The notes under the pieces were generated by a model that was given only the letters and a program-made list of their open reading frames with translations, was not told the origin of the DNA and searched no databases. Both the position numbers and the translations under genes were made by a program. DNA of 44,504 nt from the IMG/VR virus record IMGVR_UViG_2537561991_000021. One strand, written 5' to 3'. This document shows, piece after piece, positions 42,439-44,243 of this stretch (the stretch's first letter is position 1; every line of letters starts with the position of its first letter). Origin of the DNA: a virus (lineage: Duplodnaviria > Heunggongvirae > Uroviricota > Caudoviricetes).

Positions 42439-42635
42439 GCGAGAAACCCGACGATTTACTCACCCCGGATGAAGTATGCCAAAAGTTAGGTATTACACAG
42501 AAAACGCTATGTGAGTGGAATATTAAGCATCGTCATCGGGCTATCCTGGCACCAATTCGTTTCAGTGCAAAAGTAGTTCGTTATGAGCGCCGAAATATCG
42601 ACGCTTTTATTCAAAAATGTCGCAGCCAGTATTAA
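42435..42635 (+). CDS. xis: excisionase / AlpA-like DNA-binding protein
   Basis: 66 aa; LLTPDEVCQKLGITQKTL HTH with downstream basic region; last gene of the early operon, converging on the integrase. Confidence 0.6.
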   Translation: MSEKPDDLLTPDEVCQKLGITQKTLCEWNIKHRHRAILAPIRFSAKVVRYERRNIDAFIQKCRSQY

Positions 42636-44035
42636 CCTCGCCGCCGTAGCAATGCCACCTGCGCAAGTATGCTCCGCTCGTGAGCCTCGAAAGCTTCGCG
42701 CTTCAACGCAATCTCTTCCTGTAAAATCTCATCAGAAAAGTCGTAATGTTCTGCCATCGGGTCATCTGACTTGCTGGAGTGGTGAAGGCAAAGGAGGCTG
42801 ATTTCCCTTCGGTCTGAGCGGGAATAGCCTCTTTCCTTCATCAAGGCAATAACATTGCTCTTAAGGAATTTACGGCACATCGTATTAAATGCACCGTCTT
42901 TCCCTTTAACAGTCCCATCATGTTTTATTCCTTTTACAGCCCCGTCCGGGCTGTATGTTTTCACCAGCTTATCCAGTGATCGTTTTGAAAATGGCTGCAT
43001 TGGATCACGTGGCTGCAAAAATACATAATCCCTGTTGCACTCAGGAACTGAATCACGCCAGGCTTTCTGCTCGTCGATAATCCGCCGGATCTCAGGGGTT
43101 ATCGGCAGGCGGAAAGCCTTTTGTGTTTTCATAGCCCCTCGCATGCCGATAACCCCTTCCGGATAAACAATTTCACCAGCCTCCTCGTGAACGTAGTCCC
43201 AGCGCAGGTTATGGACATTAATCGGACGAACACCAGTGATGATCATGAAGCGAACAGCATTCTTCTGGTGTACAGAGGTGCAGGCAGCAACATTGAGCCA
43301 GAGTCGGGCGATTGATTCAATATCGGTAAAAAGCCGTGTGGGGGTAGGTTTCTGTACGCGGGAGGAAACATAATCATCTGGCAGACTGGCGGCAACATTG
43401 CGGCCGTTGCAAAGAGTAGGTGCGCAGAACTTCCAGAACCGACGGAGCTCGGCAAACAACTCCAGGGCGTTATTGTTCGAGCGAGTAGCGATCCACTCGT
43501 CCAGCACTTCCACCAGCCGATTGTATGTTACGTCGCTGAACACCTCGCGCTCGCCGAACGTTGCTTTAATCCGGTCGATACGCACCCCGTAGGTTGTGAA
43601 ACTGTCCGGGCTCAGCTTCTGCCGGGCGACTTTGGCTTTGAGGTCATCCCGGTACATTTCCAGCGCTGCATGTACGGACTCTGCCCGCAGGCCACCGTCA
43701 GCCATACCTAGCGCTTTTTCGCGCGCCAGCTGGATAGCGAGCTCCGGCCACTCGCCGAGCTTTTTACCTTTGAGGCCCATCTTTTTTGGAAACTCGGCGT
43801 AAAATGTAACCTTACCGGCTTTGCTGAAATCGATACGGAGATAGTTCTCTTTTTCGTATTTGGAACGGCGAGCCACGCCGGAAGCAGCGAGGATGATTTT
43901 GGCGGCAGCAACACAGATTTTCATGTGTGCGCTAGTATAGGGGGGTTTACAGGCGTCCCATTTTTCAGAAGCGGCTAAAACATCGTCATTATTGGGGCTA
44001 TCCGGATTATGTGTTACAGTGCGCGGCATTCTCAA
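42632..44035 (-). CDS. int: tyrosine-type site-specific integrase
   Basis: C-terminal catalytic region (GVRPINVHNLRWDY, LLCLHHS, EHYDFS) with a candidate arm-binding N-terminal domain. The ORF-track start is TTG; the true start is probably an internal ATG. Confidence 0.75.
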   Translation of the reverse strand: MRMPRTVTHNPDSPNNDDVLAASEKWDACKPPYTSAHMKICVAAAKIILAASGVARRSKYEKENYLRIDFSKAGKVTFYAEFPKKMGLKGKKLGEWPELAIQLAREKALGMADGGLRAESVHAALEMYRDDLKAKVARQKLSPDSFTTYGVRIDRIKATFGEREVFSDVTYNRLVEVLDEWIATRSNNNALELFAELRRFWKFCAPTLCNGRNVAASLPDDYVSSRVQKPTPTRLFTDIESIARLWLNVAACTSVHQKNAVRFMIITGVRPINVHNLRWDYVHEEAGEIVYPEGVIGMRGAMKTQKAFRLPITPEIRRIIDEQKAWRDSVPECNRDYVFLQPRDPMQPFSKRSLDKLVKTYSPDGAVKGIKHDGTVKGKDGAFNTMCRKFLKSNVIALMKERGYSRSDRREISLLCLHHSSKSDDPMAEHYDFSDEILQEEIALKREAFEAHERSILAQVALLRRRG

Positions 44036-44243
44036 TCCTTATCTGCGTAGGCGCAGAAAACAAGCTCACACATACAAGTCTTTTCTACGGGACAAAATGC
44101 AATGTGTTGCGGTTTAGTGTTGCTGGACTGAGTTTATCAAGGTTAAATACACTGGATCAACATACAGTAAGTTAATGACAGTAAAGCATACAAACTCGAT
44201 ACAACTTACTGATTTTAAAATGATTTAACGGTAATTCATTGAA

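Follow-up and report, generated by a model that had tools for sequence, protein, structure and literature searches.

Mapping of a prophage attachment site to codons 11-16 of the ferredoxin gene yfhL, with a phage-borne copy of the 5' end of the gene

Phage 21 and e14 integrate inside the icd gene and carry a substitute copy of the 3' end that they displace, so that the gene stays intact. The elements mobilized by dusA-specific integrases act on the opposite end of their target, replacing dusA's 5' end and leaving the original end at the far boundary of the element (Farrugia et al. 2015, PMC4482086). Among the closest known systems is Serratia phage vB_SspS_OS31, whose published 23-bp att lies in the gene of a ferredoxin of the 2x[4Fe-4S] type (Bujak et al. 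2020, PMC7556043). The ferredoxin gene yfhL itself appears among the prophage-"disrupted" genes in a survey (Bobay et al. 2013, PMC3603311), and reports from 2023 and 2025 call it a newly identified Stx prophage insertion site. Rebuilding of yfhL is not mentioned in the available portions of Bobay et al. (2013), of the two Stx reports or of the OS31 paper. Two other papers that name yfhL together with an integrase turned out to have no bearing on this site.

The stretch of viral DNA analysed here (44,504 nucleotides, IMG/VR record IMGVR_UViG_2537561991_000021; hereafter the window) contains near its right end an integrase gene followed by a complete, divergently oriented yfhL. The integrase ORF lies on the minus strand at 42632..44035 (TTG start, 467 aa) or, with the RefSeq start, at 42632..44029 (ATG at 44029, 465 aa, MPRTV…), where it is assigned to a yfhL-specific family; yfhL (plus strand, 44244..44504) codes for a 2x[4Fe-4S] ferredoxin of 86 aa that matches the 4Fe-4S families of Pfam. 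An earlier note on this DNA, made from the letters alone, placed the integrase about 210 bp from the start of yfhL and described the intervening segment as AT-rich and devoid of tRNA-like sequence. Both statements were borne out: the spacer (44030..44243) measures 214 bp from the integrase gene to the yfhL ATG at 44244, and the G+C content of 44036..44243 is 36%, compared with 50.6% for the whole window. No tRNA or tmRNA was detected by ARAGORN anywhere in the window, and an Rfam scan of 41500..44504 (E<=10) produced three chance-level matches only, none of them in the spacer or in 44030-44300; the covariance-model search of 44036..44243 for tRNA or tmRNA genes that the same note had proposed thus found nothing. 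That the true target is a decayed remnant of a tRNA or tmRNA lying at the junction is favoured only by the general prior that many integrases target tRNA genes, and with these negative searches and a core, described below, that is coding sequence for CINCDMCE, the probability of such a target is practically nil.

From the integrase gene through to yfhL, the window is 100% identical to E. coli FDAARGOS_1059 (NZ_CP066032.1), the closest complete genome, in which a prophage of approximately 44 kb sits between yfhH and yfhL; shoB and acpS come after yfhL in complete genomes. The second prophage boundary, which the earlier note had correctly placed outside the window, is found beside yfhH, approximately 44 kb away in NZ_CP066032.1. 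The attL of this strain being outside the window, attL was read from close relatives, because no complete E. coli genome has the IS66 junction that the window shows at 32104.

Comparison with the unoccupied yfhL locus of K-12, also proposed in the earlier note, defined the attachment core as the 18-bp sequence AATTGTGATATGTGTGAA at 44274..44291 on the plus strand, corresponding to codons 11-16 of yfhL and encoding part of the first Fe-S cluster motif, Cys-x-x-Cys-x-x-Cys (C-I-N-C-D-M-C-E). The core is identical in attB (K-12), attL (NZ_CP066032.1), attR (the window) and attP (IMG/VR contig L044, see below), is present in a single copy in the window and once per junction in the lysogen, and is flanked on both sides by the switch points of a three-way alignment of attB, attL and attR. 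Left of the core the window is unrelated to the K-12 spacer, and right of it the window continues as K-12 yfhL, the host-derived portion from codon 17 to the stop (44292..44504, plus strand) being identical to the K-12 gene. Codons 1-10 (44244..44273, plus strand, window sequence ATGTCTTTACTAATTACTAAACGCTGTATT) differ from K-12 yfhL at 10 of 30 nucleotides, as against none of the 231 nucleotides that follow. At the yfhH-side junction of NZ_CP066032.1, the native yfhL ATG and 16 codons (ATGGCGTTGTTAATCACTAAAAAATGCATCAATTGTGATATGTGTGAA) are followed by phage DNA (ATCAAATAAAAAC…), and this fusion reads as an 18-codon stub beside yfhH at attL.

Collectively, these comparisons place the prophage inside the 5' coding end of yfhL, at codons 11-16, with the phage/host boundary within 44274..44291. 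Given the att comparison and the divergence confined to codons 1-10, the spacer, these ten codons and the apparent host gene start at 44244 are all phage DNA, as is everything else to the left of the core; the spacer, accordingly named here, is the P arm of attR. The earlier note had described integration next to the ferredoxin gene, which has to be corrected to integration within it, and had taken 44244 as the start of a host gene; of the two kinds of target that it had left open, the protein-coding one stands and the intergenic one falls, because the spacer and the first 30 nucleotides of yfhL are phage-borne. An attachment site in the 214-bp AT-rich spacer, with yfhL an untouched host gene, is indeed what the layout of the window suggests when viewed in isolation, yfhL being a complete ORF that RefSeq annotates as a normal YfhL. 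Against such a site, the yfhH-yfhL gap of K-12 is just 55 bp long and shares nothing with the spacer of the window, attP contigs show that the phage brings both the spacer and codons 1-10 along, and the native start codon and codons 1-16 persist at attL; the comparison of attB, attL, attR and attP refutes it, and we regard it as extremely improbable.

Within the preferred placement inside yfhL, strand exchange in E. coli is located by the junction sequences somewhere in the 18-bp core; the exact crossover position cannot be read because the core sequences are identical, and a search for inverted core-type sites around the core, carried out to place the overlap, revealed no convincing symmetry. 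In two attP contigs, L087 and L090, identity to the host gene stops at …ATGTGCG, and because it ends earlier there, the family-wide core shrinks to the 16-bp AAYTGYGAYATGTGYG.

Free attP sequences, predicted to read …CGCTGTATTAATTGTGATATGTGTGAAATCAAATAAAAAC…, were sought in IMG/VR by an exact-pattern scan for the predicted core/P' junction, which found two contigs. One of these (L045) is an attL with host flank. The other, L044 (IMGVR_UViG_3300018477_000015), unites on a single stretch of DNA the integrase gene, the P arm, the yfhL 5' end in its phage version, the core and the P' arm; it is 99.3% identical to the window in an alignment that stops exactly at 44291, and beyond the equivalent of this position it runs on into the sequence that the lysogen has at attL. 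A protein-seeded scan of IMG/VR yielded three further attP contigs (L071, L087 and L090) along with 73 attR ends, bringing to four the IMG/VR contigs with a joined attP; the phage yfhL 5' segment is present in the free attP contigs. Searches of phage collections returned, at the DNA level, only prophage extractions with host flank, for example, vB_EcoM-606R2 (an attL), and, at the protein level with the integrase as the query, Serratia phage OS31 only. The GenBank entry for the former (ON470579.1, "Escherichia phage vB_EcoM-606R2"), presented as a complete phage genome, opens with tadA, pgpC and yfhH and contains attL. Since host genes and attL are included, this entry looks like a prophage region with host flank and not like a packaged phage genome.

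The integrase can be assigned to the tyrosine recombinase superfamily on the strength of its matches to Pfam PF00589 (residues 246-359, E 4e-7, 30.4 bits, cutoff 27.1) and PHROG_1 (E 1.5e-26); Arm-DNA-bind_3 of Pfam matches residues 58-107 weakly (E 0.075), and a sequence-profile search of the PDB gave no matches. In an alignment of 21 homologues, on which the catalytic residues were assigned by eye, R268, K301, R386 and H416/H417 are invariant and Y429 is nearly so; going by the alignment only, the HxxR box seems to have another residue in place of its first His (N382/T383). The AlphaFold2 model (mean pLDDT 81) shows two confident N-terminal helices (14-26 and 33-50) that precede the arm-binding part, with a beta-rich domain at 54-94, a helical one at 119-225, the catalytic domain from 237 to approximately 430 and a long C-terminal helix at 437-464, and the best Foldseek matches of this model are structures of full-length lambda Int (1z1b, 1z1g and 5j0n; approximately 410 aligned columns, E 1.4e-8). 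The predicted architecture is thus that of a protein with lambda-type arm-binding, core-binding and catalytic domains. The earlier note had remarked on an unusually long N-terminus that it made dependent on the annotated start. The extension itself is real, and the proposed dependence did not hold up: the ATG at 44029 does not vary among 20 homologous loci, and conservation down to 37-47% identity is seen for the length of approximately 465 aa as well as for residues 1-55 (…W..CKPPYTSSHM..CVTAAK.IL…RRSKYEK). Given its conservation and its predicted fold, this N-terminus is no artefact of the start codon chosen.

Convergent with the integrase gene and overlapping its 3' end by 4 nucleotides is a gene (42435..42635, plus strand) for a 66-aa HTH protein that matches HTH_17 of Pfam (E 1.1e-5) as well as PHROG 4745, 66 and 1553, which are annotated as excisionase or DNA-binding. 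The homologous gene of Serratia phage OS31 is annotated as an excisionase, and the protein of the window is likely to be one too, that is, a candidate recombination directionality factor.

We consider it highly probable that the window ends at attR and that a lambda-type Int recombines attP with an attB situated in yfhL, the gene being rebuilt by the 5' end that the phage brings. The phage attP carries its own yfhL codons 1-10 and 214 bp of upstream DNA immediately to the left of the core, and on integration the promoter, the ribosome-binding site and codons 1-10 of the host gene give way to counterparts from the phage. According to the model, the N-terminal arm-binding domain of Int would bind TGTGTTRC arm-type sites in both arms, core-type sites flanking an overlap of 6-8 bp within the core would also be bound by Int, the neighbouring 66-aa HTH protein would act as the excisionase, and the conserved P arm would provide the expression signals of the hybrid yfhL. 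Since attP contains a phage copy of the yfhL 5' end, integration leaves an ORF for a full-length 86-aa YfhL that differs from the K-12 protein only by A2S and K8R. The element thus replaces the 5' end of its target gene, the native end being left at the distal junction.

The fate of the hybrid gene can be read in other ways. It has been suggested by the inclusion of yfhL among prophage-"disrupted" genes (Bobay et al. 2013, PMC3603311), that integration disrupts yfhL functionally, and the hybrid ORF could be intact but silent given that its promoter and ribosome-binding site are replaced. Consistent with such silencing, a consensus scan of 43900-44504 revealed no plus-strand sigma-70 promoter in the spacer, the only matches being on the minus strand inside int, and the ATG brought by the phage is preceded by a weak Shine-Dalgarno sequence. 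Inspection by eye near the LexA-like box (see below) and before the ATG gave no assignment of -35/-10 elements consistent across loci. However, the reading frame and 8 of the first 10 residues have survived a nucleotide divergence of 33%, 34 of the 35 loci from approximately 20 genera keep a full-length hybrid ORF that has its start codon, and a block immediately before the hybrid start, GTAA-N5-TGA-N-ATG, is conserved. The preserved frame, ORFs and upstream block point to purifying selection on an expressed gene, and silencing therefore seems improbable.

About equally improbable, in our estimation, is that the phage yfhL 5' segment is only a relic, picked up when a phage long ago excised inaccurately from a different host, and is not under selection. 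The phage version (S2, R8) is closer to the YfhL N-termini of lysogens from other genera, such as Providencia, than to that of E. coli, a resemblance that fits capture from a different host. Nevertheless, an origin by capture is compatible with subsequent maintenance, phages from different genera differ chiefly at synonymous positions, and the mimic is present in every attP and attR examined, including that of Serratia phage OS31. Codons 1-10 being kept in frame, with mostly synonymous changes, argues that an intact YfhL is selected for.

The P arm (44030..44243), which is contiguous with the P' arm in L044, contains blocks conserved in 20-34 loci and across genera. The block CTCACACA (44065..44072, plus strand) is located at -179 from the yfhL ATG, a position shared by most of 34 loci (within 1-2 nucleotides among spacers of approximately 214 bp, and further away in longer ones), and is nearly invariant in A4. 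A candidate arm-type Int site, TGTGTTGC, lies at -141 (44103..44110, plus strand) and is followed 13 bp downstream by a second copy (44116..44123, plus strand) that is degenerate in the window (AGTGTTGC) and reads TGTGTTRC, at -128, in other loci and in L044; the pair at -141/-128 from the yfhL ATG is present in 30 of the 34 loci. Altogether, TGTGTTRY occurs 5 times in the 578 bp of attP, compared with 0.22 per kb in the window, an enrichment of approximately 40-fold, and its copies in the P and P' arms are candidate arm-type Int sites, with Int binding suggested by this distribution. The host B arm of K-12 (L003, 3637-3644) also holds TGTGTTGT, 20-27 nucleotides upstream of the native yfhL ATG; this is the same motif as in the phage candidate sites and could be there by chance. 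In two rare family members, the P arm and the upstream yfhL are missing: L030 (Raoultella scottii) has a variant integrase N-terminus and unrelated DNA upstream, and in L117 (IMG/VR) the integrase match begins at residue 48, again with unrelated DNA upstream.

A further conserved feature of the P arm is the LexA-box-like palindrome CACTGGATCAACATACAGTA (44150..44169). The pattern CTGT-N8-ACAG (with at most 1 mismatch) is found exactly at -92 from the yfhL ATG in 22 of the 34 loci, from many genera, compared with approximately 6% of shuffled spacers that hold it anywhere, and in most family members the box lies approximately 120 bp upstream of int. Approximately 200 bp into the P' arm (L044/L002), upstream of the first phage ORF, lies another such box, this time a perfect match to CTGT-N8-ACAG. 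It is conceivable, albeit rather doubtful, that the P arm rewires yfhL, with the LexA-like box putting the ferredoxin, the integrase or both under direct SOS control by the host and with a near-leaderless transcript produced from GTAA-N5-TGA-N-ATG. If this were the case, lysogeny would alter the timing with which many Gammaproteobacteria produce a core Fe-S protein. The conserved box and whatever it may control are the sole thread of this analysis with some novelty.

To assess the spread of the site, a 361-bp probe across the empty yfhL site was compared with a collection of 5426 complete E. coli genomes. Of these, 5266 have the site intact and 160 have it split; the same number, 160 of 5426, carry most of the P arm, as one chromosomal copy per genome, and the P' arm is matched in 159 of the 5426, in 122 of them over at least 80% of the probe. 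Every interruption of the yfhL site in this collection is due to the int/att module described here, and the carriers include ETEC H10407 and STEC strains. Among the empty sites, that of E. coli BS-04 (L007, NZ_CP172819.1, 3991-4040) reads CGC TGC ATT at yfhL codons 8-10, which resembles the phage version (Arg8, ATT), while the rest of the 5' end is native; this could be either a natural allele or the footprint of a past recombination with a phage copy.

Homologues of the integrase, of approximately 465 aa, are encoded in Enterobacterales, Vibrionales, Aeromonadales and Alteromonadales. In a survey of 36 loci, one genome per species, from approximately 20 gammaproteobacterial genera, yfhL is divergent from int in 35 of the 36, at a distance of approximately 215 bp in most and more in a few distant loci, and an intact yfhL start, M(A/S/T)L(L/I)I..., is found in nearly all of them; the att core of each phage matches the codon choices of its host. 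As the coding sequence of an Fe-S ligand motif, the target is sufficiently conserved that an integrase family can follow it from order to order.

The backbone of the window prophage resembles that of a known converting phage. The Stx2b prophage located at yfhL in STEC1590 (L006, NZ_CP129345.1) has the same int, P arm and PolA/DUF2800/DUF2815/VapE/SNF2 region, with stx2b downstream of Q, and the window prophage is an stx-negative relative of it. An IS66-family element (32104-35640) resides in the replication module of the window near the DUF2815 gene, and a second IS66 copy occupies the left end of the window (approximately 1-2100); the insertion with its junction at 32104 is absent from L044 and from every complete E. 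coli genome searched, and the equivalent of the left-end copy in NZ_CP066032.1, an ISCro1 insertion, lies in a tail-fibre assembly gene. The prophage in the window is probably lytically defective. In the early region, a TIR-domain protein (38693-39454, plus strand) matches PDC-S35, a candidate defence family of PADLOC (E 7e-109), and is probably the product of a prophage-borne defence or accessory gene.

Several practical implications follow for annotation. In approximately 3% of complete E. coli genomes, among them ETEC H10407 and Stx2b-carrying STEC, the first 30 nucleotides of the gene annotated as yfhL, along with the upstream DNA, are phage DNA; prophage surveys should score yfhL as reconstituted, not disrupted; and the exact 18-bp att core delimits a prophage family that includes Stx2b converting phages.

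Judged by integrase homology and the position of the core, the element belongs to an OS31-like family of yfhL-targeting integrases. The OS31 integrase is 76.5% identical to that of the window over its full length, and the OS31 att, which corresponds to yfhL codons 9-16 read on the opposite strand, shares part of its extent with the core of E. coli, with differences at synonymous positions that in each case match the respective host. The phage carries ATGGCTTTACTAATTACAAAGCGG directly upstream of att, and its layout is alike: int, an arm of approximately 215 bp, a phage copy of the yfhL 5' end, and an adjacent HTH_17 excisionase gene. The backbones, in contrast, differ, OS31 being a lambdoid siphovirus and the window element being myovirus-like, with the PolA/DUF2800/DUF2815/VapE/SNF2 replication module. 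Lambda Int has the closest fold, with the same three domains, although the sequence identity is approximately 14% and the window integrase has two extra N-terminal helices (14-50) and the long C-terminal helix (437-464); repeated candidate arm sites in both arms and a small HTH candidate excisionase gene beside int would add to the likeness, whereas attB lies inside a gene here and is intergenic in lambda. The icd elements, phage 21 and e14, replace the 3' end of their target, whereas here the 5' end of yfhL is replaced, with its start codon and upstream signals. The dusA-specific integrases, the nearest precedent in mechanism, follow the same logic as the element described here, the 5' end of a conserved gene being swapped; the likeness claimed is one of mechanism, the target being yfhL here and dusA there, and we do not file the element among them. 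With the dusA precedent and the icd analogue at hand, the yfhL site involves no new mechanism: it is an ordinary and already reported integration site, now mapped to the base. Together with dusA, it makes two well-documented examples of integrase families that follow a conserved motif in the 5' coding end of a gene through different bacterial orders and bring a replacement 5' end with them.
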